Of a stretch of DNA of 64,000 bases, positions 4,977 through 63,892 are shown piece after piece. How positions within the stretch are numbered: position 1 is the stretch's first letter; each line of letters opens with the position of its first letter. Origin of the DNA: an uncultured Pseudomonadales bacterium (GTDB taxonomy: Bacteria; Patescibacteriota; Microgenomatia; UBA1400; MFAQ01); assembly GCA_964429015.1 (NCBI GenBank), contig CAYSAM010000002.1:25158-89157 (forward strand), written 5' to 3'. Below the pieces are notes generated by a model. The model did no database searches, was not told where the DNA came from, and worked only from the letters and a program-made list of their open reading frames with translations. The position numbers and the translations under genes are program-made.

Positions 4977-4995
4977 AACTTAATTAAAGCACACT

Positions 4996-5631: not shown

Positions 5632-5647
5632 CCTTATATTCTAATAC

Positions 5648-11435: not shown

Positions 11436-11699
11436 ATGAAATCCAAACCAGCCAAAAAACCCATTCACCAAAAAGTTGCCGCCCAAACGCTAACCCTCAT
11501 TACTACTTCCTTAGGTTTAGTTGCGGCTCTAGCTTGGAACGAAGCCATCACTGAGTACGTCAATATCTACATCAAACCTCGCTTTGCAAACGGCTCGGGA
11601 GTTATCTCTCTTTTTGTTTATGCTTTAGCCATCACCATTTTTACCGTCTTTCTTTCTTACCAGCTCAACAAAATCACCAAAAAAATCACCAAGCAATGA
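11436..11699 (+). CDS. Small membrane protein (2 TM), hypothetical
   Basis: 87 aa, two hydrophobic helices. Its stop overlaps the next start (ATGA). Confidence 0.35.
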   Translation: MKSKPAKKPIHQKVAAQTLTLITTSLGLVAALAWNEAITEYVNIYIKPRFANGSGVISLFVYALAITIFTVFLSYQLNKITKKITKQ

Positions 11700-19537: not shown

Positions 19538-19873
19538 CTATCTTACCACCGCTCCAGGCTCTACAGACTCTGGCAAAAAAATCATTACTGGTTTTTCAGC
19601 ACCATCTACCATAAGCACCATCCCTTCCGAAAACTCTTGCCCCATCTTTTTAGGTGTCATATTTAAAATCACTGGCACTTTCTTACCTACCAATTCTTCG
19701 GGTGAATAAAAAGATCTAATTCCAGAAAACAGAGTTTTTTTACCAATCTCCTCACCAAAATCAATTTTGTAGCGAATAAGTTTCTCGCTCCACTCGGGTG
19801 CGTCCGCTTCCACAATCACCCCTGCTCTAATTTCTAACTTTCCAAAATCATCATAATTTATTAGATCTTTCAT
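19538..19873 (-). CDS. tRNA-binding protein (CsaA/EMAP-like OB-fold domain)
   Basis: DFGKLEIRAGVIVEA...GKKVPVILNMTPKKMG matches the Trbp111/MetRS C-terminal-like tRNA-binding domain. Confidence 0.65.
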   Translation of the reverse strand: MKDLINYDDFGKLEIRAGVIVEADAPEWSEKLIRYKIDFGEEIGKKTLFSGIRSFYSPEELVGKKVPVILNMTPKKMGQEFSEGMVLMVDGAEKPVMIFLPESVEPGAVVR

Positions 19874-20871: not shown

Positions 20872-20873
20872 AG

Positions 20874-20947
20874 TAGCTGGGGCGAGATTCGAACTCGCGC
20901 TCTTCGGTTTATGAATCCGATGCTTTAACCAACTAAGCTACCCAGCC
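20874..20947 (-). tRNA. tRNA-Met (anticodon CAT; elongator-type, alternatively a lysidine tRNA-Ile2)
   Basis: Manual fold of the reverse complement: acceptor GGCTGGG/CCCAGCT (G1-U72), D-arm GCTT/AAGC, anticodon loop TTCATAA (CAT), T-arm GCGAG-TTCGAAT-CTCGC, discriminator A, no encoded CCA. The 31-39 A-A mismatch was noted. Confidence 0.7.
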
Positions 20948-20989
20948 TCAACTATTTATTTTATCATCACCTAGCCTCAAATCACTCTG

Positions 20990-21112
20990 AGGTGTCACAG
21001 TTACCTAAATCATGCTAAAATAAGCTCGTTCCCTATTTGCGGGGGGAAGGTAAGTATCTTGCAGGGCTCATAATCCTGCTTAACCGGGGGGCGGAACCTC
21101 GGCCCCGCAACA
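20990..21112. ncRNA. GC-rich structured intergenic segment, possible small ncRNA or degraded tRNA-like remnant
   Basis: GCGGGGGGAAGG...GCAGGGCTCATAATCCTGC...CCGGGGGGCGGAACCTCGGCCCCGC forms several GC stems and stands out in an AT-rich genome. No family was assigned. Confidence 0.2.
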
Positions 21113-21116
21113 CAAT

Positions 21117-21503
21117 TCAAAAATCGCGATAGAACACCAATTCTTTCCACTTCTCCCAGTTTTCTATATCTCTTTTTTCATTTTCTGAACCTATAGTTTT
21201 ACTTAATTTCTTGGGCAAAACCACTACCACTTCATCAGTTCTTTGCATATTTAGCTTTTCTCTAATCAACTTCTCCTTGTGCTCATCAGAGCTCACCTCA
21301 GTAAATTTAGCCACAAGCCTTTGATTCTCCTTGAGTACACTTTCTAGTCTACGCTCAGACTCTTTTATGCGCTCAAAACCACGCCTAGTCAGCCACAAAT
21401 CTCTAGCCATTGATATTATTAAAAACCACACAAATCCCAAAAATACCCATCCCACCCACCATTTTGCCTCATGTTGTTTTTCCTTTCGTATTAGCCCTTG
21501 CAT
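21117..21503 (-). CDS. Septum formation initiator (FtsB/DivIC-family)
   Basis: Single TM (WWVGWVFLGFVWFLIISM), a coiled coil, then the family C-terminal motif IREKLNMQRTDEVVVVLP. The start is set at the internal Met to avoid overlap with the divergent recombinase gene. Confidence 0.55.
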   Translation of the reverse strand: MQGLIRKEKQHEAKWWVGWVFLGFVWFLIISMARDLWLTRRGFERIKESERRLESVLKENQRLVAKFTEVSSDEHKEKLIREKLNMQRTDEVVVVLPKKLSKTIGSENEKRDIENWEKWKELVFYRDF

Positions 21504-21537
21504 TAGTAGACCTAGAGTGTTATAATAGACGTCACAT

Positions 21538-22404
21538 ATGGAACAAAACGCCAAAGCCGCTATAAATAGCTTCAAAGAGAACCTTGCCAAACAAGGTAGA
21601 GCTTCTGCTACCATTCTAGCCTACAGTAAGGATATAGAGCAACTAACCGATTTTATCGGCAAAAGTGGCAAAGCTTCTCTAAAAGAGATCACCAAAGCTG
21701 ATATTGACGCTTTCAAAGAAGATCTTTCTCAAAAGAACTACACTACCAAGTCTATTTCCCGCAAAATCAACTCCATCAAGAGCTTTTTTGCCTACATACA
21801 AATAAATGGTGTTATCGTAGATAACCCTGCCACAGAAGTAACCCACCCCAAGTACGACATCAAACCTCCAAGGTTGTTAAATAAGCTCGAATACCGCGCC
21901 CTAAGAGACGTTTGCAAAGACGATCTTCGTATGGCAGCCATAGTTGAACTTCTCCTCCAAACTGGTATGAGAATTTCAGAGCTTGCCAACTTAAGACTAA
22001 AAGATATCAACCACGAAACCAACCAGCTTACTATTAAGGCTTTCGAATCTCATCCAGAGCGTACCATCCCTTTCAATCAGCCAGCCAAAGAAGCGCTCGA
22101 TAAATATCTAACTGTGAGACCAAAAAGTCAAAATGATAGTGTTTTCATCACCAAAACTGGTAACACTTTCTTAATTCGTAACATTCGTTCTAACTTGGAC
22201 AGCTACTTCCATATTGCCGGTATCCAAAACGCCAAAGTAAACGACTTAAGACACACTTTTATTGCTCAACAGCTTACCTCAGGCAGTCCTTTAGTCTACA
22301 TCAGCAAGCTAGTTGGCCACAAAAGATTGTCCACAACTGAAAAATATCTGGAATTCATCTCCGAAAAACCAGCTAAGGACAAACCAAAACTTATCGACCT
22401 GTAA
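21538..22404 (+). CDS. Tyrosine site-specific recombinase (XerC/XerD / phage-integrase family)
   Basis: N-terminal SAM-like core-binding domain. Catalytic region RISELANLRLKDI ... LRHTFIAQQL ... GHKRLSTTEKYLEF (R..H-x-x-R..Y). Confidence 0.85.
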   Translation: MEQNAKAAINSFKENLAKQGRASATILAYSKDIEQLTDFIGKSGKASLKEITKADIDAFKEDLSQKNYTTKSISRKINSIKSFFAYIQINGVIVDNPATEVTHPKYDIKPPRLLNKLEYRALRDVCKDDLRMAAIVELLLQTGMRISELANLRLKDINHETNQLTIKAFESHPERTIPFNQPAKEALDKYLTVRPKSQNDSVFITKTGNTFLIRNIRSNLDSYFHIAGIQNAKVNDLRHTFIAQQLTSGSPLVYISKLVGHKRLSTTEKYLEFISEKPAKDKPKLIDL

Positions 22405-22750
22405 ACCGCTTCAAAGCGTCCAGTGTTGATTGTGATAAAAAGCTCAAAACAGCTCCCATTTTATCCATAGATCCTACTGCCAATGCCAACCAACCCGATA
22501 CTTTTTTTCGGGAATCCTCTACTATCAAAAAGGCATTCCTTACACCAGATATTTCTAGCTGCTCACCCGTTACCTCATCTTCAATAAAAATCGTTACAGG
22601 ATTACCACTCTTACCCAAGTCAAGGTCACCATTAACCATCATTCCCTGAGGCCATACCCTATTTTGGGCATAGTCAATATCTTCACGCATCTCACCAGAA
22701 ACTTTCAAAAATCTGTCTTGTACCTTTTTCTTAGACTTCTTTTTAATCAT
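22391..22750 (-). CDS. Hypothetical protein
   Basis: 119-aa ORF with a Lys-rich N-terminus and no recognisable motif. Confidence 0.3.
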   Translation of the reverse strand: MIKKKSKKKVQDRFLKVSGEMREDIDYAQNRVWPQGMMVNGDLDLGKSGNPVTIFIEDEVTGEQLEISGVRNAFLIVEDSRKKVSGWLALAVGSMDKMGAVLSFLSQSTLDALKRFTGR

Positions 22751-22772
22751 TAGCTATTTTACACATTATTAG

Positions 22773-22846
22773 TTTTAGGATGTGGGTCGACCTGGATTCG
22801 AACCAGGGACATCGAAGGTATAAGCTTCGCGCTCTAACCAGCTGAG
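22773..22846 (-). tRNA. tRNA-Ile (anticodon TAT / UAU)
   Basis: Manual fold: GGGTCGA-TA-GCTC-AGCTGGTTA-GAGC-G-CGAAG-CTTATAC-CTTCG-ATGTC-CCTGG-TTCGAAT-CCAGG-TCGACCC-A. All stems are Watson-Crick. The loop CTTATAC gives U33, anticodon UAU, A37. Confidence 0.65.
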
Positions 22847-22922
22847 CTATCGACCCAATAAGATATATTCTACCGCAACACACGTAATCTGACATCTGTG
22901 ATCTGTGATCTGTGATCCAATC

Positions 22923-25268
22923 TTACAGCTTCGATCTCTTCTCTATCTCTTCTTCTACTTCGTCAGCATCTCTACCAAATTTAAGTCGAGACAATTCTTT
23001 CACCATTCTAGCTACTTCAGGGCTACCTGCTGCCTTTTCTGCCTTTAAGTCCCTACCAACATTCATAGAAAATGGTGGAACCGGTGTTCCGTTTACAATA
23101 GTTTTTACGTAAATGTTTTGTGCTGGCACATTCCCCAAGTCGTTTTCATTAAAAACCGGCTCAAACTCCTTGGCTAATATCGAAGCGTCTTGTACACCCA
23201 CTCTGTAAGTCATCTGAGTTCCAGAGTTTCCAAAAATAGCATCTCTTACCTGTTCTTCAAGTTGACTCACAAACTGATTAGCCATAATTAACCCCATTCC
23301 ATACTTTCTAACCTCTGAAAGCATCTGGGCAAAATCCGGGGTGGCAAAGTTCTGAAACTCGTCAACATAAAAGTAAAAGGGTCTTCTTTCTTCCCTTGCT
23401 AATTCTTGTCGCGAAAGGGCAGCTGCCAAAATCTTTGGCACAATCAAGTTCCCCAAAAAGCTAGAGTCCTCTTCGCCAAGCAATCCCTTTGCCAGTTTCA
23501 AAAACACAATCTTACCCTGATCCATAGCCTCACGCATATTTAAAGTACTCTTTGCCTGGCCAATAATATTTCTAATCATTTTGTTAGTTACAAAACGACC
23601 AAACTTGGACGAAATATAGTCCAAAGTTTCACTTTTATGAAAATCGCTCGTCTGAGCAATTTGATCTGTCCAGTAGCGCCTTACAATTGGATCTTTTACC
23701 AACGGTAATATTTCCTGCACATACTTTTGGTCAGTTAACACTCTATTTACCTCAACAAAAGTTGCTCCTGGCACACAGCCAACAGTAAGCATTGCGTTAC
23801 GCACAGCATGTTCAAACCGCGCTCCTACCATACCAGTTCTATTAGGATCAAAAAGTTTATACATCAAATTAATAATCGAAGAAGCCACTTGGTACATTTC
23901 GTCATAATGTTGTACTTCCAACAAGTTAAAACCAATTGGCCTTTCTTTATCTGAAGGATCAAAAAGTATAACGTCTTCAGCCCTCTCAGGTGGAACCAGC
24001 TCTAGCAACTCTTCAATACCATCTCCGTGTGGCTCCATAAAACAAAGACCTCTTCCTGCTCTCATGTCTTGTAAAATCATCGATTTCAAAAGTTCAGTTT
24101 TACCAGTACCAGTCTTACCAATAATATACATATGCCTCATCCTGTCCGCCTCACTTATGTAAATATTTCTTTCTTGACCTCTATAAATTGACCTCCCTAG
24201 CCACAAGCCCTCAGAGGGAAATCCACCTGTTGCGGGAGCACTCTTTGCCGTTAGCCAATATATGTGTGGGGTTTCAATTGTTTTATTGGGTAAGTGCCAT
24301 ATAGCGGCCAGCTCATCAGTCGACAGTATAGAGTTGTTACCCCACATGTTTTGATAACGATAAATAATATCCAGCATAAACGAATGTTTAAAGCGAATCT
24401 TACCCCCACTAAAACTGTTTTGATTACCATTAAACTGAGAAAAGACACCTTTTAAATTACTTATATTTGCCTTTGCTGTTTCTTTGTTAGGTGAAATGCT
24501 TACCAAGCGAATACTTGTCAAAAATCCTTGCTTATTACATTTTGCCGAAATTGCCTCCATATCCTGAGGATTCATTTTATACTTTGCCTTCTCCGGATCA
24601 GACTCATCCTTTTTAAGTTTAGAAATATAACCCAAACCAGACTTTGACCACAAAGACTCAGCAGGGGAAATAATAATTTGGATAATCGCTGCTTCATCAT
24701 CACCAAACTTAGCTAATGCAGAAGTTAAAGAAGACAAAAAATCTACTGGCATCTCCTTAAAGGATTTTAGAGGTTTAAATGACTCATTTTTCAAAGTCAG
24801 CTCAGAAAACTCAATTTTTGCATCCTTATAAAAAACATTGTATTCATCTACCTGTACTACTTGTGTTCCCGGGTAAGTCCCTACTACCATTTTTTCAATT
24901 AGCTCAACATTATTTTTGTGACAAGAAATATAAAATCTTATATCCTCTTTTTTGCCAACCACCTCCAAAGAGAGATGTTGTTGGGCTGCAAATTTTTGCC
25001 AAAAGCCACTTTTTTTGAGTGAGTATAAGGAGCTGAACATCTGCTCCACCGCCTCCACCTTTATTTCATTATCTCTAGGTACTGCTATCTCTAGTAATAC
25101 AAAATTCATACTCACTTCTTCTCTGTTTCGAAATCGAAGCCAAATCACAAATATCATCCAACAAAAAATCAAAGAGGCGACAACCAACAGCACCCCCAAA
25201 ATCAAAACCAAAAAATACTGCAACCAATAAGCACTAATCATATTCATTGCTTGGGCTATAAAAAACAC
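22923..25268 (-). CDS. VirD4/TraD/TraG-like coupling-protein-family ATPase (FtsK-HerA superfamily) with N-terminal TM segments
   Basis: N-terminal hydrophobic helices. Walker A YIIGKTGTGKTELL. Walker B/DEF YFYVDEFQNF followed by LSEVRKYGMGLIMANQFVSQL...YRVG, matching the RKxGxxxxxxxQ region of T4SS coupling proteins. A ~350-aa N-terminal region of unknown function. Confidence 0.5.
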   Translation of the reverse strand: MFFIAQAMNMISAYWLQYFLVLILGVLLVVASLIFCWMIFVIWLRFRNREEVSMNFVLLEIAVPRDNEIKVEAVEQMFSSLYSLKKSGFWQKFAAQQHLSLEVVGKKEDIRFYISCHKNNVELIEKMVVGTYPGTQVVQVDEYNVFYKDAKIEFSELTLKNESFKPLKSFKEMPVDFLSSLTSALAKFGDDEAAIIQIIISPAESLWSKSGLGYISKLKKDESDPEKAKYKMNPQDMEAISAKCNKQGFLTSIRLVSISPNKETAKANISNLKGVFSQFNGNQNSFSGGKIRFKHSFMLDIIYRYQNMWGNNSILSTDELAAIWHLPNKTIETPHIYWLTAKSAPATGGFPSEGLWLGRSIYRGQERNIYISEADRMRHMYIIGKTGTGKTELLKSMILQDMRAGRGLCFMEPHGDGIEELLELVPPERAEDVILFDPSDKERPIGFNLLEVQHYDEMYQVASSIINLMYKLFDPNRTGMVGARFEHAVRNAMLTVGCVPGATFVEVNRVLTDQKYVQEILPLVKDPIVRRYWTDQIAQTSDFHKSETLDYISSKFGRFVTNKMIRNIIGQAKSTLNMREAMDQGKIVFLKLAKGLLGEEDSSFLGNLIVPKILAAALSRQELAREERRPFYFYVDEFQNFATPDFAQMLSEVRKYGMGLIMANQFVSQLEEQVRDAIFGNSGTQMTYRVGVQDASILAKEFEPVFNENDLGNVPAQNIYVKTIVNGTPVPPFSMNVGRDLKAEKAAGSPEVARMVKELSRLKFGRDADEVEEEIEKRSKL

Positions 25269-53790: not shown

Positions 53791-54420
53791 CTAAAACAGC
53801 CCCATCTGCATCTCCGCAGGCTTCTCCTCAACCACTTCTGTAGGGTAACCAAAATCAACTACTATCTCTCGGAACTCATTCCACCTATCCTTAAACTTCA
53901 GTATTCCATTTTTTCTACCGTAGTCATACACCTTCGTTGTCACCTCCACATCCACCTCGCAATATTTTTTAAGATTAGCTAAACTCTCAGAGTCGCCAAG
54001 ATTCCACCACTTTACAGCGTCCAATCCTCCTGCAATTTTTCCTGCACCAATCGTTTCTTTAGCTACACTGTCTAGTTTTACTCTGTGTCCAAAAGATTTT
54101 CTAATCTCCTCCAAAATATCGAAGTGTTTCAATTTAGTAAAGTCACCTTTTGTATACACCCCATTCATCGCTGGATTATCAAACCCAAAAGAGTTATACC
54201 CAATTATTCTGTCCGCCTCCTCAAACCAACTCCACATACTATCAAAGTCACCTTCCCAAAAACTTTTCATTTCACCAGATAATTCATTACCATTTTCATC
54301 TACTTCTCGTCTATAAGCTGACACTATCGATATTCCCAAATCTGCCGGATTGTTTGTACTTATCTCATCAAAAATTTTCTTAGTTTCTATGTCGTAAATC
54401 ACTTCAACTCTTTTTTTCAT
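53791..54420 (-). CDS. RNase H-like 3'-5' exonuclease (DEDD / PolB-exonuclease-like, YprB-type)
   Basis: Motif I YDIETK (DxE). Motif II GYNSFGFD. Motif III YCEVDVEVT. Confidence 0.5.
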   Translation of the reverse strand: MKKRVEVIYDIETKKIFDEISTNNPADLGISIVSAYRREVDENGNELSGEMKSFWEGDFDSMWSWFEEADRIIGYNSFGFDNPAMNGVYTKGDFTKLKHFDILEEIRKSFGHRVKLDSVAKETIGAGKIAGGLDAVKWWNLGDSESLANLKKYCEVDVEVTTKVYDYGRKNGILKFKDRWNEFREIVVDFGYPTEVVEEKPAEMQMGLF

Positions 54421-54497
54421 AGTTCCCCCATTAAACCACTACCTTCCAAAAATGTAAAACTATACTCCACGATCCACGATCTACAAACTACGATCTT

Positions 54498-55007
54498 TTA
54501 TCTCCCGTTCTCCCAAATTCTCATTCTTTTCTTAACCCAAACCCCAAAACCCATTACAGCTATTCCCGCCAACACTCCATAAAGAATATTTTCCCAAACA
54601 CCAGTTTCTGGTAAGGTTGTAACCGCCGATGCCGTCGCTGTTGGGGTTGGGGTTGGCGTGGCTGCAGATGCATTAAATCGTATTGTAAAGGTCAAAATCT
54701 GACTTCCCGAATTAACAGTTATCAAATTATCACCAGTATTCAAAGAACTAGGAGTAAAATTCCAAACCCCACTTGTTGTCGCTGCAATCACCGCACTAGA
54801 TGTTGCGTTTACTTTTACACTTACCATTGCAGCGGGAGTAGCTGTTCCTTCAAGCTGTGGCACTGATCCGGTATAACTGACCAAAGTGTAATCTGCCCCT
54901 ATTGTTGACAAAGTTCCAATCTTTGTCAAAGTAAGGTCATAAGCAAAAACGGGAAAAGCAAACAAAAATGCTCCCAGTATTGTCCATAAAATATTTTTTT
55001 TCCACAT
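54498..55007 (-). CDS. Sortase-anchored surface protein (LPETG cell-wall anchor)
   Basis: Signal peptide MWKKNILWTILGAFLFAFPVFA. C-terminus TTLPETG + hydrophobic helix + KKRMR. Thr/Pro-rich linker ATPTPTPTA. Confidence 0.65.
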   Translation of the reverse strand: MWKKNILWTILGAFLFAFPVFAYDLTLTKIGTLSTIGADYTLVSYTGSVPQLEGTATPAAMVSVKVNATSSAVIAATTSGVWNFTPSSLNTGDNLITVNSGSQILTFTIRFNASAATPTPTPTATASAVTTLPETGVWENILYGVLAGIAVMGFGVWVKKRMRIWENGR

Positions 55008-55068
55008 TTTGATTTTTTGATTTTTTCTTGATTTCTCGAGTTCTTGATTTTTCGAGTTCTATATATAT

Positions 55069-56406
55069 TTATAACTCAATTTCTGTTTCTAAGTTAGGAA
55101 GAATTACTTCTACTCCATCAAATTCATTTAGTATTTTCTCCTTCAGTACCAATCTGGGTATTTCCTCACCATGTGTCAAGGCAACTTTCTTTACACCTTT
55201 TATTTTTGAAAACCAGTTTATAAGCTGGCTCTGATCAGCATGTGAACTCATTGTTTTAATTTCTTTAATTTGTGCCCTAACCTCTATATGGTTCCCCCAA
55301 ATAACTACATTTTCTTTTCCGTCTTTTATTTCCCTTCCCAGCGTTCCCTCAGCCTGAAATCCCACAAAAACAATTGTATTTTTCGGATCATCTAAATAGT
55401 TAATAGCGTGATGAATTATTCTTCCCCCAGTCATCATTCCACTTCCAGCTACAATAACTTTTGTTCCTGGATAGTTCTTTATTTGCTTACTTTTTTCCAC
55501 ACTGTCGCACACCACTAAACCAGGAAAATCAAAGGGATCGTCACTCCTAACGACATCTTTCAATTTTTTACTAAAAAGTCCAGGATAATCCTTAAAAATC
55601 TCGGTCGCTTTTATTGCCATTGGCGAGTCCAAAAAAACTGGAGTGTCATTACTTACTTTTCCTTGTTTTTTGAGTTGATCAAAAACAAATAAAACCTCTT
55701 GCGATCTTTGCAAAGAAAAAGTCGGAATCATTACTGTTCCACCCACTCTTTCTGCTTCGACAACAATTTCCGCAAAATCTTCGATCTCTTCTCTTTTTCC
55801 GTGAACTTCATCACCGTAAGTAGACTCCAAAACAGCAAAATCGGCACCATCAACAAACTCTGTTGGCTTTATCAAAGGCTCTGGGGTATTCCCTAAGTCA
55901 CCACTAAATACCAGTTTCTTTTTTGTCGCAATTTCTTCCACTAAAATACTCGTCGACCCCAAAATGTGTCCCGCATCAAACATTGTTAACTTAAAATCAC
56001 CAACAGCAAAAGGTACGTGATAGTCTACTAAAACTACTTTTTTCAAAAATTTTACAACCGCATCTTCGTTATACATTGTTTCCGTTGCGTCTTCTTTTGC
56101 AATTTTTGCACTATCCATCAAAACAATCTCCGCCAAAGCCTTTGTTGGCTCATTCATAAAAACAGGTCCGTCAAAACCAAACTCAAGCAACATTGGCAAA
56201 CGGCCACAGTGATCTAGATGTGCGTGTGTCAAAACAATCGCATTTAGCTTTTCAAAATCAATTGCGGGCTTGGCAAAGTTTAACTTGTCATCATCCTTTA
56301 TTCCCTGAAACATGCCGCAGTCCACCATTAAACCTGTGTTTTTACCTTGCAAAAAATAACATGATCCGGTCACCATACCAGCAGCACCCAAAAACTTTAA
56401 CTTCAT
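55069..56406 (-). CDS. Beta-CASP-family metallo-beta-lactamase ribonuclease (RNase J/CPSF-like)
   Basis: HAHLDHCGRLP (HxHxDH), a MBL beta-CASP domain with downstream conserved His and Asp. 445 aa. Confidence 0.7.
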   Translation of the reverse strand: MKLKFLGAAGMVTGSCYFLQGKNTGLMVDCGMFQGIKDDDKLNFAKPAIDFEKLNAIVLTHAHLDHCGRLPMLLEFGFDGPVFMNEPTKALAEIVLMDSAKIAKEDATETMYNEDAVVKFLKKVVLVDYHVPFAVGDFKLTMFDAGHILGSTSILVEEIATKKKLVFSGDLGNTPEPLIKPTEFVDGADFAVLESTYGDEVHGKREEIEDFAEIVVEAERVGGTVMIPTFSLQRSQEVLFVFDQLKKQGKVSNDTPVFLDSPMAIKATEIFKDYPGLFSKKLKDVVRSDDPFDFPGLVVCDSVEKSKQIKNYPGTKVIVAGSGMMTGGRIIHHAINYLDDPKNTIVFVGFQAEGTLGREIKDGKENVVIWGNHIEVRAQIKEIKTMSSHADQSQLINWFSKIKGVKKVALTHGEEIPRLVLKEKILNEFDGVEVILPNLETEIEL

Positions 56407-56429
56407 ATATATTCAGTCTACCAGAACCA

Positions 56430-56503
56430 GTCGTCGTTGCGAGGAACAACCCGCCCGCAACACTGAAGAGTACTTCTGCGAGCAGGAGTGACGTGGCAAT
56501 CTA
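56430..56503. repeat. Palindromic element, long variant (copy 5)
   Basis: tcgtcgttgcgaggaacaacccgcccgcaacactgaagagtacttctgcgagcaggagtgacgtggcaatc, with the same TCGTCnTTGCGAG...GGCAATC termini. Confidence 0.7.
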
Positions 56504-56522
56504 TATAGATTAGAATGTATTT

Positions 56523-57278
56523 ATGACCTGCCCACAATGTCACGATAGTCTAAATAAACTAGAAGTAAGCACCACCGATGGTCAAGTGAGAAAAATAGAC
56601 GAGTGCTTAAACTGTGGTGGACATTTTTTAGACAATTATCTTGTCAACTTTATTTCAGTCGAAACAGCCCGGAACATCGACTCTGTTCTTCCCAAAAAAC
56701 ACCTCCCCACAGTATCCGAACCAAAATGTTTCCATTGTGGTCAAGTTATGTTTGCAATCTCCGATGACTCCACTCCCAAAACCGTCACTGTCTACAACTG
56801 TCCCAACAACCACGGTGATTTTTTTCCCAAAGGTCAACTCCTCCTTTTCAAAAAAGCTCAAGACGCCAAAATAAACTATCACAAACTCTGGGGAATCCCT
56901 CTCAAAACTGCCTTCTCAGTAATCATTCCCCTTTTTATTATCTTCACCTCAGTTACGGTCCTACCCTCAGTTGTTAAAGAACTCAATCAGAGTACCGAAA
57001 ATCGCGTCAAAGCTTCTGAAATACTTACCGAACCTCTCATTACTCCCATCTCAGACAATCAAGTCCTCATTTCTTTCTCCACCAAAAACAAAGTACCCAC
57101 CAACCTTATTTTTACTTCAGGTATAAACAAAACTTTTACTGTTTCAGAGCAACCAAAAACAAGCCACTTAGTTAGTATCGAAAACCTTCCTCCTGCCACC
57201 ACTTTTAAATACACAATCGTTATAGATCCACAAGGTAAAAATCTCAAAACCTCAGAATACTCCTTCTCTACCCCCTAA
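56523..57278 (+). CDS. Zinc-ribbon membrane protein with a C-terminal FN3-like beta-sandwich domain, hypothetical
   Basis: Two CxxC...CxxC ribbons (CPQCH...CLNCG; CFHCG...CPNNHG), one TM (FSVIIPLFIIFTSVTVL) and a beta-rich tail. Confidence 0.4.
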   Translation: MTCPQCHDSLNKLEVSTTDGQVRKIDECLNCGGHFLDNYLVNFISVETARNIDSVLPKKHLPTVSEPKCFHCGQVMFAISDDSTPKTVTVYNCPNNHGDFFPKGQLLLFKKAQDAKINYHKLWGIPLKTAFSVIIPLFIIFTSVTVLPSVVKELNQSTENRVKASEILTEPLITPISDNQVLISFSTKNKVPTNLIFTSGINKTFTVSEQPKTSHLVSIENLPPATTFKYTIVIDPQGKNLKTSEYSFSTP

Positions 57279-57318
57279 ACTCAACAATCTACGATCTACG
57301 ATCTACTATAATACTCCC

Positions 57319-58068
57319 ATGCCCCGCCAACTTTCTCCTTACGAAAAAAACTTTCTAACCAAACACCACTTTGATTTAAACTTACCGGAACTCCAAACCG
57401 AAATACCAGTAGAATATTTAGTTGGCAAAGCTGAATTTCGAGGGCTAGACTTTTTTGTCAATAACTCTACTCTAATTCCCAGAATAGAAACAGAAAAAAT
57501 AGTTGATCTTGCACTAGAAAATATTATGGAAAAATTCTCTACTCGCAACAAAATAATCATTGCTGATGTTTGTACAGGATCGGGGTGTATTGGAGTCTCA
57601 CTTGCCTTAGAACTCGTAAAGCACAACTATGACTTTCATGTCTATTTTTCTGATATTTCCCAAGAAGCACTCAAAATTGCCCAAAAAAACTTTAGTTATT
57701 TTTTACCTGACTATAAAAATTTCGCCTCATTTTTATATTCAAATCTTTTTGACAAATATCCATTGGATACAAACATAGACCTAGTTCTCTCAAACCCTCC
57801 CTACATTCCAAGCAACAGAATAAAAACACTAGATGTCTCCGTCAAAAACTATGAACCAATAACTGCCCTAGATGGCGGACAAGATGGGCTTTTATTTATC
57901 AATAAAATTATAGATGACTTGGCAAACATCCAAAACAAGGTTAACGCAATTATCGAGATAGATGAGATTCATACATTGCAAGATATAAAAAAAAGCGAGA
58001 GCTACAAACTCTCGCTTATCAAAGACACGTTCGGTGTCAATCGCTTCTTATCTCTTTTTTCTTTTTAA
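57319..58068 (+). CDS. prmC: Release-factor glutamine N5-methyltransferase (PrmC/HemK)
   Basis: SAM motif VCTGSGCIG and the NPPY motif LSNPPYIP. Confidence 0.8.
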   Translation: MPRQLSPYEKNFLTKHHFDLNLPELQTEIPVEYLVGKAEFRGLDFFVNNSTLIPRIETEKIVDLALENIMEKFSTRNKIIIADVCTGSGCIGVSLALELVKHNYDFHVYFSDISQEALKIAQKNFSYFLPDYKNFASFLYSNLFDKYPLDTNIDLVLSNPPYIPSNRIKTLDVSVKNYEPITALDGGQDGLLFINKIIDDLANIQNKVNAIIEIDEIHTLQDIKKSESYKLSLIKDTFGVNRFLSLFSF

Positions 58069-58322
58069 AACTTTTTTCTTGGCTTTTACCACTTGAGTTT
58101 TAACTTTAGCTACTTGAGCTTTACCTTTTTTAACAGCTTTTTTTACTTCACCAGCAACCATCTCTCTATTTTCTTTTTTACTAAGAAACATTCCCGCTAC
58201 TCCAGCAGCTACACCAATAACAGCAGCTCCTACGGCAGCGAACAAATTCATATTATTTTTTTTGGCAGGCATTTTTGTTTTTTTGCTTACTAACTTTTAA
58301 TAAATTCATTATGCCACAAAAA

Positions 58323-58356
58323 CAAAATCTCTGCAAAAAAAAGCCCCCTGTAAAAA
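58323..58356 (-). terminator. Rho-independent terminator of the vWA/kinase/phosphatase operon
   Basis: On the minus strand: GCCCCCTTG-TTTTTA-CAGGGGGC hairpin followed by TTTTTTTT, 25 nt after the vWA stop codon. Confidence 0.5.
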
Positions 58357-58382
58357 CAAGGGGGCGAGAAAATAAAATTAAA

Positions 58383-59207
58383 CTACGGCTGTCCAAAACC
58401 ACCAGCAGCGGCTTGTGAAAACGGCTTTGCGCCCTGACTTCCGCGAGCAGCTGTCTGAGAGAACGTACCAAAATTCAAGCGAATATCATGCTTGTTTGCG
58501 GTCGTGGTGAGAATCCATTTGTCCTGGATACCCATCCGCTTAAACACATCACGGAAGTCAGTACCATGTTTATCTTGGATACCCATAGCAGACACAATAT
58601 GTGTTTCATCTTGGAGAATCTCTGACACAATATCTTTCACACTTTCAGGGGTAGTAAACCGCCTACTGTGCTGGTCATAACCGTCAGTTACGATTAAGGT
58701 GGCAGAGCGAACAGGCTTTCCGCGATTTGAAAATTCCTGCGTCTTAGCCATAAGGTCCCCCAAGGCAACGACAGACATATCATAAAGAGGAGTTCCACCA
58801 TTAGCCTGATAGTTGCTTGCATCCAAAACTGGAACCTGAGCTATCGGGGTAAAGGGAATAACGACTGTACCATTCAAGTAACGTACGCACATAAGTACAG
58901 CATTGTTTGAATTACTTTCCATAAGCGCTTCACGAACAACATTAACCCCATCACGAATTGCTTGTTCGTTTCCAGCTTCAGCAATCGATCCAGAGTCATC
59001 AACCAGAATGGTAACCAAATAAACCTCATTTGGCCCCTTTACGTCAACTGCAGGAACGCCCATTGCCTGATTGATTTGGTTAGCGATATCAGGAATTGAA
59101 AAAACGCTAACCGCCGCTTTTGACAGCACACCATCTTCATGTGCAGAGCCAAACAAACTTTGTACATTTGCAATACCAGCAGCTTTAGAACTATTTTGTG
59201 GGTTCAT
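58383..59207 (-). CDS. vWA-domain protein (TerY-like)
   Basis: MIDAS DxSxS in VTILVDDSGSI; GGTPLYDM; TLIVTDGYD. 274 aa with a Gln/Ala/Gly-rich C-terminal tail. Confidence 0.7.
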   Translation of the reverse strand: MNPQNSSKAAGIANVQSLFGSAHEDGVLSKAAVSVFSIPDIANQINQAMGVPAVDVKGPNEVYLVTILVDDSGSIAEAGNEQAIRDGVNVVREALMESNSNNAVLMCVRYLNGTVVIPFTPIAQVPVLDASNYQANGGTPLYDMSVVALGDLMAKTQEFSNRGKPVRSATLIVTDGYDQHSRRFTTPESVKDIVSEILQDETHIVSAMGIQDKHGTDFRDVFKRMGIQDKWILTTTANKHDIRLNFGTFSQTAARGSQGAKPFSQAAAGGFGQP

Positions 59208-59234
59208 TTTTTATCTCCTTTAGACAGTACCAAC

Positions 59235-60263
59235 TTAGAACTTAATTCCCGGCCACGATTCAATCGGGTCGGTTGATTTCACGATATTCATGCCGGCTTT
59301 GGCAAAACGTTTGAATGCCGCGTCTGCAGCATCGGTGTGATCAACCACACCAGGAACGACAACAGGGCTTGTACAATCTTCCAACAAGTAAACTTTCTTA
59401 GCCAAAGTAGGATCAACAGCATTAATTTCGTCTAAGAAATCCGCAACTGTCCACGCTACACAATGACTCTTAGCTTGGCCAGCAATTGCGAGGTAGTCGT
59501 ATGCCTGTAGTTTCTTCACAAAGCCAGTGCTCTTCTGTGCAATCGCCTGTTTCATGGCAAAAAGAACTTCACCACGCAGCGCAGAATAGTTCTCAGATAA
59601 AACATTTCCACCCTTGATTTCATCTCCTGCGTCGACTTCGCGAGCCACATTATGGAAAAATACGGCTTCGTGCAAGGAAGCAACAAGTGCATGACCAATA
59701 CCACCGAGCATTGCGTGATATGGCCAAATTGTCAACTTATAACGACCGGCAGCTTCAAGTTGAGCTGTATACTCCAACAAGTAAGCTTGCAACCAAGCAT
59801 AGTTAACACCTGGAACACGACCAACAACACCAGGATTAATCATCCATTTGCCTTTTCTTACATCATCATTACTAATTTCAGTGTATGGAGCCGGGTGGTT
59901 TCCTCTTCCATCAACAATAAACATTGCATGGAAGATTTGCTGGATGTAGTGTGTGTCAAAAGTTAGTTCAATTCCGGAAATACGTCTCATCTCACGATAA
60001 ATCATTTCCGTCAAGCGTCGAATATCATCGACTGCGCCATTACCAGATCGACCACCAACAAAAAGTTCAAATCCGGGTGAACAAAAAGTGTTCTGAGCAT
60101 CAATGATCATCAAGCCAAAGCGTTTGGCATCTCGAGAAGATGGGGGGATGTTGTACTTTCTAGCCCAGTTTGGAGCATCAGTAGCCAGTTTTTCATATTT
60201 TGGTTCCCAGATCTTTCCAACGGCCTTCGGATCATAGTGAGCAGGTAAAGGTAAACTAGACAT
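59235..60263 (-). CDS. Isochorismatase/nicotinamidase-family cysteine hydrolase with a large internal insertion
   Basis: LMIIDAQNTFC (DxQxDF-C). Catalytic Cys context LAIAGQAKSHCVAWTVADF. 342 aa, whereas ~190 aa is typical. Confidence 0.55.
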   Translation of the reverse strand: MSSLPLPAHYDPKAVGKIWEPKYEKLATDAPNWARKYNIPPSSRDAKRFGLMIIDAQNTFCSPGFELFVGGRSGNGAVDDIRRLTEMIYREMRRISGIELTFDTHYIQQIFHAMFIVDGRGNHPAPYTEISNDDVRKGKWMINPGVVGRVPGVNYAWLQAYLLEYTAQLEAAGRYKLTIWPYHAMLGGIGHALVASLHEAVFFHNVAREVDAGDEIKGGNVLSENYSALRGEVLFAMKQAIAQKSTGFVKKLQAYDYLAIAGQAKSHCVAWTVADFLDEINAVDPTLAKKVYLLEDCTSPVVVPGVVDHTDAADAAFKRFAKAGMNIVKSTDPIESWPGIKF

Positions 60264-60278
60264 TTTTTTCTCCTATTT

Positions 60279-62147
60279 TTATTTTATTGTTAGACTTAGA
60301 ATTTCTTTTTTTCTTATAACCAAAACACCACTCGAACTTGGAAGTAGGAATGAGTTTTTGTCAACATATGGCTCAGTATCCGGAAACACTTTTGTCTGTG
60401 TAACTTTTCCAGATACTATCTCAGAACGAACCAACCCCTCATCAGTAGCACTCAGTATAAAATTACCAACAGGAAGTTTGCCCCTGATATTTCCCAACCA
60501 AGAGCCATCACCTTCATCAGTTTCAGCCACTGCTTCAATTTCCCCCAGTGAGTTAATTACCTGTAAACGGTTTAGCAACTTTGGACCATTTTTTTCAGTG
60601 GTCATAAACCACGCCCGCGTGCTAGTAAAAACACAGGTAGAATCAACAAGCTGACCACGTGTCGGAGTAATATTCACAGAGTCATTTATTCCAGACCTAT
60701 CAGCGTCAAATGTAAATGCCCTGGTTAGATTCCCAACACGATAGAAACCAAAACCAAAACTTTCTCCAACCCAAAACATTGTCTGGCCCTCGAGCACTGT
60801 ACCTATTGGTTCAGGTCCAACATCTTCATCTCTGTATAAGATACCTCCACTAGCCCAGTACCTGTGTCTGGAATTGGCATCAATAAGTGGTAAGTTTCCA
60901 AAACTATCAACTGGAATATTATCAATGACCTTACCACCTTCTAAAACCACCATACGCCCATCTCTCGCAAGTATTGTCTTCTTCCCCGACACACGATATC
61001 GCAACCCAGGATCAAGATCTCCTACCAGAGCTACACTTCCACCTTCTCTGATGAAGTTCCCGTCTTCATGGAAGATATATTTCAAGGTTCCATTTTGGAC
61101 AGTTGCGTATATTACTACACCCCTAGTTTGAAAAAGAAAATCAATCTTTACAGAGCCGCGAATTTGAGTTACTTTCTTTGAAGCAACACCCTTTAAACAG
61201 TTTGGGCATATAGCCCTAGCATGCTCAATACCACAGTTGGAACATTTCTCAAAATTGATATCTAGTAATCTTAGGGGGAACTCTCCTCTCCAGCCTTTTT
61301 CAAAAGTTCTTGAAAAAATTTCCAAGAGCTCATCAGGCAAAATATTAAGTTGAGGTGCGTCCTTTGGATACTTCACCGCAGAGTTAAAAACACTAATGCC
61401 TCGCAAGGGTCTTTCGTCTAGCAGAACCTTTCTCATTTTATTTTTTGCAATATAAACGCCACCATAAGGCCTCACAAACAGCAAAGCTTCCATCAACATC
61501 GCCATATATGCATACCAATCAGAGTTTCTATCATGAGGTCTAATTAGCATCATCGATTTCAGGTTTGGATCACATAGCCGAGGATCCACGTAGTTCGCTG
61601 TAAACAGCTGGCTTAGATATTTCGAATTTCCCATACTATCAGCGTCAACAATTCTGCAAACTCCTTGTTTGAGTAATACATTCAAACTATTAAAATCAGA
61701 AATTACCCCACCAGCGTCTTCATGAACTTGTTTTACTGTAGGATGCAAATCGCGAAAATATCCCAACATTGCGTTGTTTCCAATACCTCCCCTTGTACGA
61801 AACTCAGGATCGAGGTATTTAAGCATCGGCTCAAAGCCTTTAAGTTTCTCCATAGAATAGCCCAATACCTTCTTCTCGTTTGCGTCAGTCAAAAGACTAA
61901 GTGGTATAACCACCTTTGAAGGAAGTTTTGAAAAGGGAAACTCTCTAAGTTTCGTCTGATGAACAGCTATCCTTTCTCTGGCACGTTCTTGTTGAACTGG
62001 ATCCTTTGAATATGTTGGGTCATCTGGAAGTTTGTAAATTTTGGCCAGTTTCTTCGGACCAATATCATAGATATACGCCTCACCTCCTTCACTAAAAAGT
62101 ATGTCGAGGAGAATTCGCATACTACCATCATAAGCAACTCTATACAT
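60279..62147 (-). CDS. Atypical Ser/Thr protein-kinase-like protein with a central zinc ribbon and a ~300-aa C-terminal domain of unknown function
   Basis: Kinase-like subdomains: SEGGEAYIY (Gly-rich loop-like), LAKIYK (VAIK-like), ISDFNSLNVLL (HRD/catalytic-loop-like D...N), VDADSMG (DFG-like). Zinc ribbon CSNCG...CPNCL. Confidence 0.6.
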   Translation of the reverse strand: MYRVAYDGSMRILLDILFSEGGEAYIYDIGPKKLAKIYKLPDDPTYSKDPVQQERARERIAVHQTKLREFPFSKLPSKVVIPLSLLTDANEKKVLGYSMEKLKGFEPMLKYLDPEFRTRGGIGNNAMLGYFRDLHPTVKQVHEDAGGVISDFNSLNVLLKQGVCRIVDADSMGNSKYLSQLFTANYVDPRLCDPNLKSMMLIRPHDRNSDWYAYMAMLMEALLFVRPYGGVYIAKNKMRKVLLDERPLRGISVFNSAVKYPKDAPQLNILPDELLEIFSRTFEKGWRGEFPLRLLDINFEKCSNCGIEHARAICPNCLKGVASKKVTQIRGSVKIDFLFQTRGVVIYATVQNGTLKYIFHEDGNFIREGGSVALVGDLDPGLRYRVSGKKTILARDGRMVVLEGGKVIDNIPVDSFGNLPLIDANSRHRYWASGGILYRDEDVGPEPIGTVLEGQTMFWVGESFGFGFYRVGNLTRAFTFDADRSGINDSVNITPTRGQLVDSTCVFTSTRAWFMTTEKNGPKLLNRLQVINSLGEIEAVAETDEGDGSWLGNIRGKLPVGNFILSATDEGLVRSEIVSGKVTQTKVFPDTEPYVDKNSFLLPSSSGVLVIRKKEILSLTIK

Positions 62148-62156
62148 TCCGACCTC

Positions 62157-63008
62157 CTAAATTCTACTAGCCGTTACGATAGCCAAATCATCAGTTAAGA
62201 CTGGTGGGTAAATTTTTACTCGTTCATCTTTCCAGTTTATGACTCGCTTCTCACTAGCAAGCAAATTTAATCTTCCAACCAAATTACTTCGATTGTCGAA
62301 ATACGACACATTCTTCCAAAAATCTTCTGGATCTGCAATTTCAGTTGTTCCTGGCACACACTTTTTACTATCATTAAAAAACCCTTTAAGTCCATCCGTC
62401 GCCACCATTGCCGAATTTACGGTATTAGTTGAAGCAACTTTTTTAACCCTAATTTTTAAATCATCCGGAGCCATAACCTTTAGGCTTGTTTCGATCAAAT
62501 TGTACCCCAAGGCGGTAGGAAAATTATCTCTTGCGTCTGGTATCATTTCAAATTTCACGCCGTTCAAATAATAATACCCATCACCAACCCCAACGAACAG
62601 CGTAATATCTGGCGTGACTATCATACCTACAAGGGTGAACAAAAAGTAGCTCACAATATTATTGTGGTAGCTTCCACCTATTCCTCGAGCAATACTATCA
62701 ATTTCTCCCAGGGTATGCTTCTGAATATCTGCCCAAAAATTTTCATTTTGAAGGTAGAAGTTCCAGCGCCACTTAGAAATACTTTCAAGTCGGGAAACAA
62801 CATAGTTTGTTACAATTCCAACTCCAACTCTAGACCCCACTTCAGTATAAGTCTCAAAGGGAAAATTGCTATTTGAACAACCATCGGCAACAAACGACAC
62901 CATCAGATCTTTTTTTTCTTTTACTAAATACGCATCTTGGCAGTTCTTTTTTACCTTCACATGATCACCACCAATTACACTACCATGGCTATATCTCAGA
63001 GGAATCAT
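62157..63008 (-). CDS. PP2C-family Ser/Thr protein phosphatase
   Basis: QDAYL, VADGCS (metal-binding DG motif), GDGYYY and VATDGL (the C-terminal metal-binding D). Confidence 0.75.
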   Translation of the reverse strand: MIPLRYSHGSVIGGDHVKVKKNCQDAYLVKEKKDLMVSFVADGCSNSNFPFETYTEVGSRVGVGIVTNYVVSRLESISKWRWNFYLQNENFWADIQKHTLGEIDSIARGIGGSYHNNIVSYFLFTLVGMIVTPDITLFVGVGDGYYYLNGVKFEMIPDARDNFPTALGYNLIETSLKVMAPDDLKIRVKKVASTNTVNSAMVATDGLKGFFNDSKKCVPGTTEIADPEDFWKNVSYFDNRSNLVGRLNLLASEKRVINWKDERVKIYPPVLTDDLAIVTASRI

Positions 63009-63136
63009 CGTTTCTCCTTACTATATTTTATTATAAAAGTTCTAATACCCCACACTTAGTGTATTTATGACACAATTATAGCCCACTTTTCTTTATTGTC
63101 AATAGCAAGCTAACACAAGTCAGGTATACTTAACTC

Positions 63137-63892
63137 ATGTCCTGGATCTATACCATTCTTGCCTCCCTAGTAGAGGGTTTTACCGAGTTTCTCCCTATCT
63201 CCTCTACTGGTCACCTAATAGTCCTCAATCATCTTCTAAAAATCCAAGACTCCGACATAATCTCCTCTTTCAATATTTTTATTCAGCTAGGAGCCATCCT
63301 TGCAGTATTAAATCTTTACTATCAAGACCTTCTCAAAGACAAAAAAATATTACTCAATATCCTTATCTCATTTATACCGACAGCCATCATCGGTTTTACC
63401 TTATATCCACTTATAAAACGATACCTCTTAAGTAACCTACTTATTACCACAGCAAGTCTTTTTCTGGGAGGCATACTTATCTTTCTTTTACCAAAAACAA
63501 CAAAGTCAAAGGAGGTTAATCTTTTGGGATATTTTAAAATAGGTATTTTTCAGTCTCTTTCAGTTATTCCGGGTACGAGCAGAGCTCTAATGTCTATTAT
63601 TGGAGGACTATTCTCAGGCCTAAACATGGAAGAGGCTGTCAGATATTCTTTTCTATTGGCCATTCCCACCATAGGTGCAGCTACCGGCTTAGATTTAATC
63701 AAAAATAAAGAAATATTACTCCAGAATATAAATCTACTACCGTTTTTTCTTCTTGGGTTTACCCTATCATTTGTAACAGCAAAGTTAACCCTTAAATACT
63801 TTCTTGGTCTTGTCAAAAACAACTCCCTAAAGTTTTTTGGTTACTACAGAATTGCACTCGCACTCCTAATATATCTAGTACTACTGAGGTAA
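63137..63892 (+). CDS. uppP: Undecaprenyl-diphosphate phosphatase (UppP/BacA)
   Basis: LVEGFTEFLPISSTGHLIV is the canonical UppP N-terminal motif. Multi-TM. The second motif is PGTSRA. Confidence 0.85.
   Translation: MSWIYTILASLVEGFTEFLPISSTGHLIVLNHLLKIQDSDIISSFNIFIQLGAILAVLNLYYQDLLKDKKILLNILISFIPTAIIGFTLYPLIKRYLLSNLLITTASLFLGGILIFLLPKTTKSKEVNLLGYFKIGIFQSLSVIPGTSRALMSIIGGLFSGLNMEEAVRYSFLLAIPTIGAATGLDLIKNKEILLQNINLLPFFLLGFTLSFVTAKLTLKYFLGLVKNNSLKFFGYYRIALALLIYLVLLR

Follow-up and report, generated by a model that had tools for sequence, protein, structure and literature searches.

We analysed a 64-kb stretch of contig CAYSAM010000002.1, from an uncultured member of the Patescibacteriota (the window, below), and describe here a cassette of four genes within it, encoding a protein phosphatase, a protein kinase, a nicotinamidase-like hydrolase and a protein resembling von Willebrand factor A (vWA) domains. 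The cassette is taken as the four-gene block 58383-63008. A first-pass annotation had outlined an island at 58270-63136 and proposed, from its base composition, that the genes were horizontally acquired.

Organization of the locus

All four genes are on the minus strand. In the order of transcription they are P (62157..63008), for a PP2C-type Ser/Thr phosphatase of 283 amino acids (aa) recognized by Pfam PF13672; K (60279..62147), for a 622-aa kinase with a zinc ribbon and a propeller-like domain; N (59235..60263), for a divergent PncA-like cysteine hydrolase of 342 aa that, like K, was assigned with AlphaFold, Foldseek and hhalign; and V (58383..59207), for a 274-aa vWA-like protein assigned from a MIDAS-type motif (metal-ion-dependent adhesion site) and a transitive profile link. 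Upstream of P is a perfect sigma-70 consensus promoter (63075..63102, minus strand; TTGACA-16-TATAAT, 12/12 matches). Abutting its -10 hexamer on the downstream side is a candidate repressor site (63059..63073), an NrtR-box-like palindrome that reads GTGTCATAAATACAC on the minus strand; this is the single occurrence of GTGT-N7-ACAC in the window. Downstream of V lies an intrinsic terminator hairpin (CCCCTTGTTTTTACAGGGGG plus a T run; 58344..58363, minus strand). The minus strand of 58344-63102 is one transcription unit: a consensus promoter with an NrtR-type operator, four genes and a terminator.

The neighbours on both sides are housekeeping genes on the opposite strand, as the first-pass annotation had it. 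To the left is prmC, for release-factor glutamine methyltransferase (57319..58068, plus strand; TIGR03534 at 191.8 bits, HemK family above cut-off), and to the right, divergently transcribed from the cassette, is uppP/BacA (63137..63892, plus strand; BacA E=6.5e-62). Between prmC and the terminator an open reading frame (ORF) of 74 aa (58048..58272, minus strand) forms a conserved flank outside the cassette, an anchor beside the variable site described below. Its product has one membrane helix and a Lys-rich tail; the ORF overlaps the prmC 3' end by 21 nucleotides (nt), has a strong terminator of its own at 58017-57993, and shows 100% identity among 7 contigs whose sequence to one or both sides of it varies.

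The four proteins

Protein P matches the PP2C_2 profile (PF13672) with E=8.3e-13 and 48.8 bits, against a cut-off of 24 bits. For N, K and V, sequence and profile searches against the PDB gave nothing useful at the sequence level, and structure prediction and hhalign took their place. K divides into a protein kinase domain (residues 1-295), a Nop10-like CxxC...CxxC zinc ribbon (302-317) and an all-beta, propeller-like domain (327-622). Its AlphaFold model has a mean predicted local distance difference test score (pLDDT) of 90.3, and Foldseek matched it to the kinases AAK1, CaMKII and PknG and to propellers of the clathrin, DDB1 and WD40 types. The hhalign comparison with Escherichia coli YegI (probability 98.4%, E=5e-15) spans both the kinase domain and the zinc ribbon. 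The catalytic residues are invariant (G21, K36/K39, D151, N156 and D168).

The model of N (pLDDT 85) is closest by Foldseek to PncA of Acinetobacter baumannii (2wta, E=1.9e-9) and to yeast Pnc1; there were 81 PDB matches at E<=1e-3, the top five being nicotinamidases. By hhalign (probability 95.3%, E=2.3e-8), D55, K217 and C268 align with the catalytic triad of E. coli PncA (D10, the Lys of KGENPL and the Cys of DYCV), and the metal ligands D103/H105 and H183 align with its QDWH and WPDH motifs. All six catalytic and metal-binding residues are invariant in 27 homologues. N also carries an N-terminal extension (~45 aa) and an insert of ~65 aa. The Pfam Isochorismatase family does not match the window's N and matches weakly in 8 of the 27 homologues. 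N is nicotinamidase-like, with a predicted activity of deamidating nicotinamide to nicotinate. It is the most conserved of the four proteins, with 56% identity between the window organism and Leptolyngbya.

Some N homologues have unusual forms or company. (i) Five of 582-585 aa (P0143, P0147, P0155, P0207, P0213) have an N-terminal extension of ~240 aa with no Pfam match; we considered these as N-vWA fusions and rejected the idea, the extension not being the vWA-like protein. (ii) In locus L036 a second, weaker N-like paralogue (hidden Markov model (HMM) score 130) is found downstream of the cassette at 11517-12467. (iii) Canonical PF00857 isochorismatase genes neighbour the cassette in two other loci.

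The MIDAS-type motif of V consists of DDSGS (70-74), T139 and D175, and is invariant in 24 homologues; the C-terminal tail is conserved and Ser/Gln-rich. The link of V to vWA domains is transitive: the homologue in relative L094 aligns to the V family (hhalign 98.5%) and itself matches Pfam VWA at E=9.5e-4. Alignment of V to E. coli YegL is weak, at 20% probability over the T...DG region.

The module in other genomes and in phage-like contigs

A metagenome scan with the kinase profile gave 80 loci, to which more were added by exact-protein look-ups. Wherever there was room for a partner gene beside K, it was nearly always present: P in 60/60 loci, N in 62/63 and V in 50/50, with the P stop codon overlapping the K start (median -4 nt). 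P-K-N-V is an obligate module, whose order is essentially invariant over ~80 independent loci. The kinase family comprises 485 clusters at 50% identity (E<=1e-30). Named sources include Patescibacteria (Uhrbacteria, Sungbacteria, Falkowbacteria, Shapirobacteria and Peribacteria), many cyanobacteria, Eremiobacterota, KSB1, Thermoanaerobaculia, Actinomycetota and a metagenome-assembled genome (MAG) of Aenigmarchaeota (DPANN).

The cassette is also present on 14 IMG/VR contigs of 41-545 kb (L100-L113), which are likely huge phages. On one of these, L106, a phage-type DNA polymerase gene (E=4e-154) and a primase gene lie 1-5 kb from the cassette (2686-6262 region); other neighbours of the cassette on the viral contigs include genes for RNA ligases, a CCA-adding enzyme, PurZ-like and Mom-like proteins, nicotinate phosphoribosyltransferase (NAPRTase) and NadE. 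Jumbo phages are known to encode gene clusters of the Preiss-Handler pathway of nicotinamide adenine dinucleotide (NAD) synthesis (PMC11662467). By tblastn, no cassette match was found among the plasmids of PLSDB, and GenBank phages gave two remote kinase-domain matches only (23-24% identity). The literature we searched held no description of the four-gene P-K-N-V combination. Apparently undescribed, the cassette varies on a signalling triad of known type and has a tie to NAD+ salvage.

The cyanobacterial locus of Leptolyngbya sp. 'hensonii' (L007, 5170-11604) is interrupted: an ADP-ribosylglycohydrolase gene stands between P and K, and two Uma2-family genes, for putative restriction endonuclease-like proteins, also break the cassette. 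An nrtR gene is divergently placed at this locus.

Association with NrtR and NAD metabolism

NrtR proteins are Nudix-related repressors that control NAD metabolism in response to ADP-ribose (Rodionov et al. 2008, PMC2330246). They bind an operator with a GT-N7-AC core within a 21-bp palindrome and are released from DNA by ADP-ribose (PMC2330246). Directly upstream of P, 27/48 cassette loci have an NrtR-like gene, in which a Nudix domain is joined to a winged helix-turn-helix. The palindrome TAGTGTA-N5-TACACTA, which fits the published core, occurs upstream of P in 30/55 loci, often twice. Its density there is 2.67 per kb, as opposed to 0.062 per kb elsewhere, a 43-fold enrichment, and it accompanies an adjacent nrtR in 20/27 loci and the lack of one in 6/21. 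The most frequent Pfam families among the 127 ORFs neighbouring cassettes are NAPRTase (8), ADP-ribosylglycohydrolase (4), NAD kinase (4), nicotinamide mononucleotide adenylyltransferase-like (3) and NAD synthase (2); no integrases were among the top families.

Divergent cassettes at one site

Relatives of the window organism hold different versions of the cassette in the same place. Contig L094 (GCA_020049755.1) is 98.7% identical in nt sequence to the window over 54362-58380, and its flank proteins are 99.2% (prmC), 100% (a Zn-ribbon protein) and 99.8% (an MBL-fold, or metallo-beta-lactamase-fold, protein) identical in aa sequence. The blastn homology ends at 58380, 3 nt past the V stop codon. 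It stops by the terminator hairpin, within ~20 nt of that codon, and the hairpin is common to the window, L094 and another relative, L090. We place the left recombination junction at 58364-58382; sequence upstream of the shared hairpin is unrelated between alleles. Past the junction, L094 has this four-gene architecture in a remote version, with a 620-aa kinase (full-length hhalign probability 99.9%, 24-26% identity to K), an N homologue of 315 aa (33.5%) and a V homologue of 280 aa (~26%). L097, an independent assembly, has the same junction as L094.

The 63-kb contig L090 shares gene order with the window over 13 kb, with flanks 90-91% identical at the nt and 93-100% at the aa level (SufB 99.8%). 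Its cassette is a third version, whose proteins are 50, 64, 66 and 61% identical to those of the window. It is closer to the alleles of the distant hosts L001 and L004 (79-82% for K, 88-89% for V) than to that of the window, its close relative. Since prmC of L090 is only 43% identical to that of L001 and L004, this grouping is incongruent with vertical descent. In L001, L004, L090 and L094 alike, the cassette sits by prmC, the Zn-ribbon gene and the 74-aa ORF. Independent assemblies thus carry other alleles at the site (L094 and L097; L090, L091 and L096), and L098 and L099 suggest further configurations. The window-type allele was found once in the databases, in the window's own 93-kb contig. 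Exact look-up of the window's K and uppP in the contig index returned no record, and prmC as a query against contigs matched just a distant Levyibacteriota MAG (43%) and a contig of acidobacterial origin, both without synteny.

The region around the junction is itself patchy. Relative to L090, the prmC body (57266-57995) is a second divergent tract (58-79% nt and 70% aa identity), although it is 99% identical to L094; between it and the cassette lies a 300-bp block (57995-58295) of 91-94% identity to L090. The neighbourhood is thus a recombination mosaic. On the right, the uppP 5' end of L090 is just 78% identical in nt sequence to that of the window, and L090 has an extra gene (201-1328, 375 aa) between uppP and the cassette promoter, of host-like composition and with no Pfam match, that is absent from the window.

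Both promoter hexamers (-35 and -10) are kept in L090, L001 and L004, with a spacer that varies, and the operator-like site is identical in all three. With hexamers and operator conserved while spacer and leader differ, the four coding regions were apparently exchanged within a conserved regulatory frame. The first-pass annotation had suggested comparing prmC-uppP synteny in related genomes that lack the cassette. The site was never seen empty; in L090 and L094 it is filled by divergent versions. These comparisons show horizontal exchange of the module, which moves as one unit within a conserved frame of promoter/operator and terminator; at least three mutually very divergent versions occupy one site in genomes with 90-99% identity in the flanks. 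The alleles might also be an old polymorphism that recombination has shuffled within the population.

Base composition of the cassette

The proposal of horizontal acquisition had been built on a stretch visibly richer in G and C and in G/C-ending codons, coinciding exactly with the four genes. The window as a whole has a G+C content (GC) of 38.4%. The cassette has 41.7% (41.1% over 58270-63136) and the remainder of the window 38.2%. It is indeed the maximum among all 4.6-kb windows, but exceeds the runner-up (19751-24376, 41.0%) by only 0.7 points, and 1-kb windows elsewhere (26.5-28 kb, 30.5-31.5 kb) rise to 0.43-0.44. The GC maximum does fall on the four-gene block; the rise over it is uneven, at 45.2% for 58383-59207, 44.3% for 59235-60263, 40.4% for 60279-62147 and 38.4%, the background level, for the PP2C gene (62157-63008).

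Codon endings do not take part in the rise. GC at synonymous third codon positions (GC3s) is nearly equal inside the island (0.320) and in the rest of the window (0.316), with the four genes ranking 14, 17, 37 and 33 of 64, and GC at their 4-fold sites is unremarkable (z -0.4 to 0.8). The excess is located in the first (GC1; z 2.1, 1.7) and second (GC2; z 1.7, 1.6) codon positions of two genes, because the V and N proteins are rich in Gly, Ala, Arg and Pro. A string quoted as an example of G/C-rich codons is genuine and lies at ~58408-58460, where it encodes the Ala/Gly/Arg-rich C-terminal tail of the last cassette gene.

The same pattern recurs across hosts. The comparison took in 40 loci that had sufficient flanking sequence, their hosts ranging from 31 to 74% GC. 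In 38/40 the cassette is richer in GC than its flanks. The mean excess is 5.5 points, with the gradient P<K<N~V repeated across loci and average rises of 3.8 points for GC1, 2.4 for GC2 and 7.3 for GC3; the window's excess of 3.5 points is below the mean. Cassette GC follows host GC (r=0.93, slope 0.92), as a donor footprint would not, so the GC bump is no evidence of recent transfer. The GC excess is a property of the gene family and not a donor footprint. The conclusion of horizontal acquisition survives on the evidence of the relatives, though the GC argument for it does not.

At synonymous sites the cassette does have an anomaly, of another kind. The plus strand of the window has a GC skew of -0.315 with no switch within the 64 kb, and the coding-strand GC3 skew of host genes is +0.53 ± 0.13 for the 49 other minus-strand ORFs and -0.53 for the 14 plus-strand ORFs; uppP, at -0.42, is host-like. 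The four cassette genes have coding-strand skews of 0.10, -0.04, 0.23 and 0.21 (ranks 2, 1, 5 and 4 of 53; Mann-Whitney p=6e-4). At 4-fold sites C is 13.5% in the cassette vs 6.9% in the rest, and G 16.1% vs 21.3% (chi2=51, p=4e-11). The tetranucleotide and dinucleotide distances of the cassette to the window are the largest found, with 0 of ~107 windows reaching these values. In sum, the cassette lies within the window-wide distribution for GC3 and outside it for GC and for k-mers, and its true synonymous-site anomaly is a much weaker strand skew together with the most deviant k-mer signature in the window.

Two simple causes of the weak skew were considered and rejected. Inversion fails because the cassette points the same way in the window, L001, L004, L090 and L094, whether judged by prmC, by the 74-aa ORF or by the leading strand. 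Recent import of the window allele alone fails because the L090 and L094 alleles share its synonymous composition: all three have 4-fold sites with A.28-.29, C.12-.135, G.16-.18 and T.41-.43, as against A.34, C.07, G.21 and T.38 in same-strand host genes. This shared composition fits alleles that mostly reside in another gene pool, or a locus-specific selection regime. The strand asymmetry of the window is otherwise extreme and uniform, with 53/67 ORFs on the G-rich strand. The sole other long minus-strand ORF with weak skew (GC3 skew 0.12, GC2 0.43) encodes a 603-aa beta-helix/Big_7 surface-type protein at 7495-9306, and may be another exchanged or atypical gene.

Relation to known systems

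The closest known system is the TerY-P triad, which consists of a vWA protein, a PP2C phosphatase and a kinase with a C-terminal zinc ribbon (PMC11090510); TerY-P-like anti-phage modules were reported by Gao et al. 2020, as summarized in PMC11090510. The cassette likewise has a PP2C_2 phosphatase (PF13672) and a YegI-like kinase whose resemblance includes the zinc ribbon after the kinase domain (98.4%), and its P and K are translationally coupled; the MIDAS-bearing V is a candidate counterpart of the TerY-like vWA protein. It differs in (i) a fourth obligate gene, N, between K and V (62/63 loci), where TerY-P has three genes; (ii) a beta-propeller of ~300 aa after the ribbon of K, instead of an OB fold or nothing; (iii) proteins without a PADLOC TerY-P match and a V too divergent for Pfam; and (iv) an NrtR-type operator and a NAD-salvage neighbourhood.

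PncA and Pnc1 are isochorismatase-like cysteine hydrolases that catalyse the first Preiss-Handler salvage step. N shares their fold (E=1.9e-9 to 2wta), the Asp-Lys-Cys triad and the Asp-x-His...His metal site, and its gene often adjoins those for NAPRTase (PncB), NadD-like proteins and NadE. It is, however, longer (342 aa vs ~180-215 aa), only 12-19% identical to them and below Pfam and NCBIfam thresholds, and its gene always stands together with those for a kinase, a phosphatase and a vWA-like protein.

Cassette loci also resemble NrtR regulons, in the Nudix and winged helix-turn-helix gene upstream (27/48), in the GT-N7-AC palindrome overlapping the promoter, and in co-located pncB, nadD and nadE, which match the cyanobacterial NrtR regulon. 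Published regulons, however, list no PP2C/kinase/vWA set, and the regulator gene is absent from the window's 64 kb. A further relation is to systems centred on ADP-ribosylglycohydrolases, for which Iyer et al. 2022 (PMC9503650, section 3.8) predict a role against viral ADP-ribosylation. These have Nudix-HTH (NrtR-like) negative regulators that are predicted ADP-ribose sensors, an accessory vWA 'chaperone', and variable, rapidly exchanged modules, taken in PMC9503650 as a hallmark of conflict systems; some P-K-N-V loci, such as that of Leptolyngbya, have an inserted ADP-ribosylglycohydrolase. The core there is nevertheless the glycohydrolase with rhodanese-type phosphatases, the description including no kinase, PP2C or nicotinamidase, and the glycohydrolase is absent from the window and rare at cassette loci (4/127 neighbours).

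With classical genomic or defence islands the cassette shares an atypical composition and content that varies between near-identical genomes at a fixed site amid housekeeping genes. Unlike them it has no integrase, tRNA target or flanking direct repeats: no integrase is among the window ORFs; the tRNA scan found none near the island, the nearest tRNAs being at 20.9 and 22.8 kb; the Rfam scan had no match near it; and the search for att-like direct or inverted repeats at its ends gave chance-level matches only. Instead of filling an empty site, a homologous divergent cassette replaces another, apparently by recombination in the promoter and terminator frames. The cassette is, moreover, GC-richer than its host. 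Acquired DNA is usually AT-richer than the host.

Proposed function and alternatives

We favour, with a probability of about 0.6, a reading of P-K-N-V as a horizontally exchanged, ADP-ribose-responsive, TerY-P-like NAD+ module that takes part in host-virus conflict over NAD+. Cleavage of NAD+ would yield ADP-ribose and nicotinamide. The ADP-ribose would free an NrtR-type repressor from the operator and derepress the operon; N would deamidate the nicotinamide to nicotinate, feeding the Preiss-Handler route (PncB, NadD, NadE), whose genes often stand beside the cassette in other loci. K, P and V, a triad homologous in kind to YegI/PphC/YegL (TerY-P), would form a reversible phospho-switch, which would use the propeller to sense a protein or ligand and would in turn gate the response. 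Allele turnover and phage-borne copies suggest a module engaged in NAD+ conflict rather than in plain housekeeping. The effect may be of either sign, defence or NAD+ rescue.

Several results weigh against this proposal. The window lacks any NrtR-like HMM match in its 64 kb, so regulation here would depend on one operator-like site. N scores 17.6 bits against the curated PncA model NF008623, whose cut-off is 174, and this low score, with the 65-aa insert near the active site, means that its substrate may not be free nicotinamide. K has no known substrate, V has no direct match to vWA in Pfam or PDB profile searches, and in a defence scan with PADLOC-DB 2.0.0 no family matched any of the four proteins or the 74-aa ORF at E<=1. 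The phage status of the IMG/VR contigs is putative. As to exchange, the right-hand junction is visible only against L090 and has no precise placement, and the direction of replacement is obscured by the closeness of the L090 allele to those of distant hosts and by the single database occurrence of the window-type allele.

One alternative is a stand-alone anti-phage (abortive-infection) system of the TerY-P type, in which the triad senses infection and the nicotinamidase is the effector, its destruction of nicotinamide blocking phage NAD+ reconstitution (Nampt- or Namat-based) or depriving NADase effectors of product inhibition. The homology of K to YegI, the kinase of the E. coli yegI-pphC-yegL triad, speaks for it, as do the reports of anti-phage TerY-P-like modules (PMC11090510), an extreme allele turnover among near-identical genomes that is typical of immune loci, and the standing of NAD+ as a known battlefield, with the phage pathways NARP1-3. 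We nevertheless think it unlikely: PADLOC models for TerY-P and other defence systems found no match, the neighbours are NAD biosynthesis and salvage genes and not defence or mobile-element genes, and the likely phage copies adjoin NAPRTase and NadE genes, a better fit to rebuilding NAD+ than to blocking it.

An ordinary NAD salvage operon would have N as the organism's PncA, the kinase, phosphatase and vWA-like protein as metabolic regulators, and neutral allele diversity. Full conservation of the PncA catalytic and metal residues speaks for it, and the NrtR operators and genes, the PncB, NadD, NadE and NAD kinase neighbours, and the rank of N as the best conserved of the four proteins (56% to Leptolyngbya) are all in keeping. 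What makes it rather improbable is that between the window and L090 or L094, housekeeping genes on the same contigs keep 93-100% identity, against 24-66% for the cassette; repeated replacement would not befall a housekeeping operon that is neutral. The distribution across phyla is patchy as well, and no described NrtR regulon has such a kinase/PP2C/vWA set (PMC2330246).

The cassette could instead be a native, vertically inherited operon, its GC excess due to protein composition and its divergent versions fast-evolving orthologues. The composition data agree with this, the excess being in codon positions 1 and 2 with GC3s at background and recurring in nearly all hosts, and the same neighbourhood (prmC, Zn-ribbon gene, 74-aa ORF) surrounds the cassette in L001, L004, L090 and L094. 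The step at the terminator, from 98.7% nt identity to no detectable nt similarity within ~20 nt, excludes in-situ divergence as its cause, however, and the distant affinities of the L090 allele and the deviation of strand skew and k-mer signature from the host add to a case that leaves this account very improbable. Least credible of all is a chimeric contig, with a foreign cassette joined at short shared sequences: the window-type allele is known only once, and conserved segments, among them the shared terminator and promoter, are places where assembly of metagenomes can cross from one genome to another, but both flanks have host-like strand skew, so that it would take two crossovers, the genes run on without a break into promoter/operator and terminator, and the other alleles at the site in independent assemblies (L094, L097; L090, L091, L096) make its variability real.

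An ADP-ribose-responsive NAD+ module of the favoured kind would tie a TerY-P-like switch of unassigned output both to nicotinamide deamidation and Preiss-Handler NAD+ salvage and to the regulatory logic of NrtR and ADP-ribose. More speculatively, and as a suggestion we hold with much less assurance, P-K-N-V might represent an undescribed class of NAD+-centred conflict modules shared by bacteria, symbionts of the Candidate Phyla Radiation (CPR) and DPANN, and huge phages, switched on by ADP-ribose through NrtR during cleavage of NAD+, in which K, P and V gate nicotinamide recycling by N, and whose recombining divergent alleles are maintained at one site by diversifying selection. On that reading the enigmatic TerY-P triads would gain a first metabolic output. 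NAD+ depletion and reconstitution are central to phage-bacterium conflict, and a widespread, ADP-ribose-responsive module of fast turnover that is phage-borne as well is directly testable. It could also account for how the NAD+ pool is protected or regulated in organisms with minimal genomes, such as CPR bacteria. On the side of method, GC enrichment by itself is a poor guide to transfer; more was learnt from strand skew at third positions, from k-mers and, most of all, from near-identical relatives.

Two features elsewhere in the window may be recorded. A tRNA-Ile gene with anticodon TAT (UAU), an uncommon type in bacteria, is at 22782-22856 on the minus strand, 1.9 kb from a tRNA-Met(CAT) gene. 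At 54498-55007, also on the minus strand, is a gene whose product, a small secreted protein, combines a Thr/Pro-rich linker with a sortase-type anchor signal (LPETG) and is 93-98% conserved in L090 and L094.

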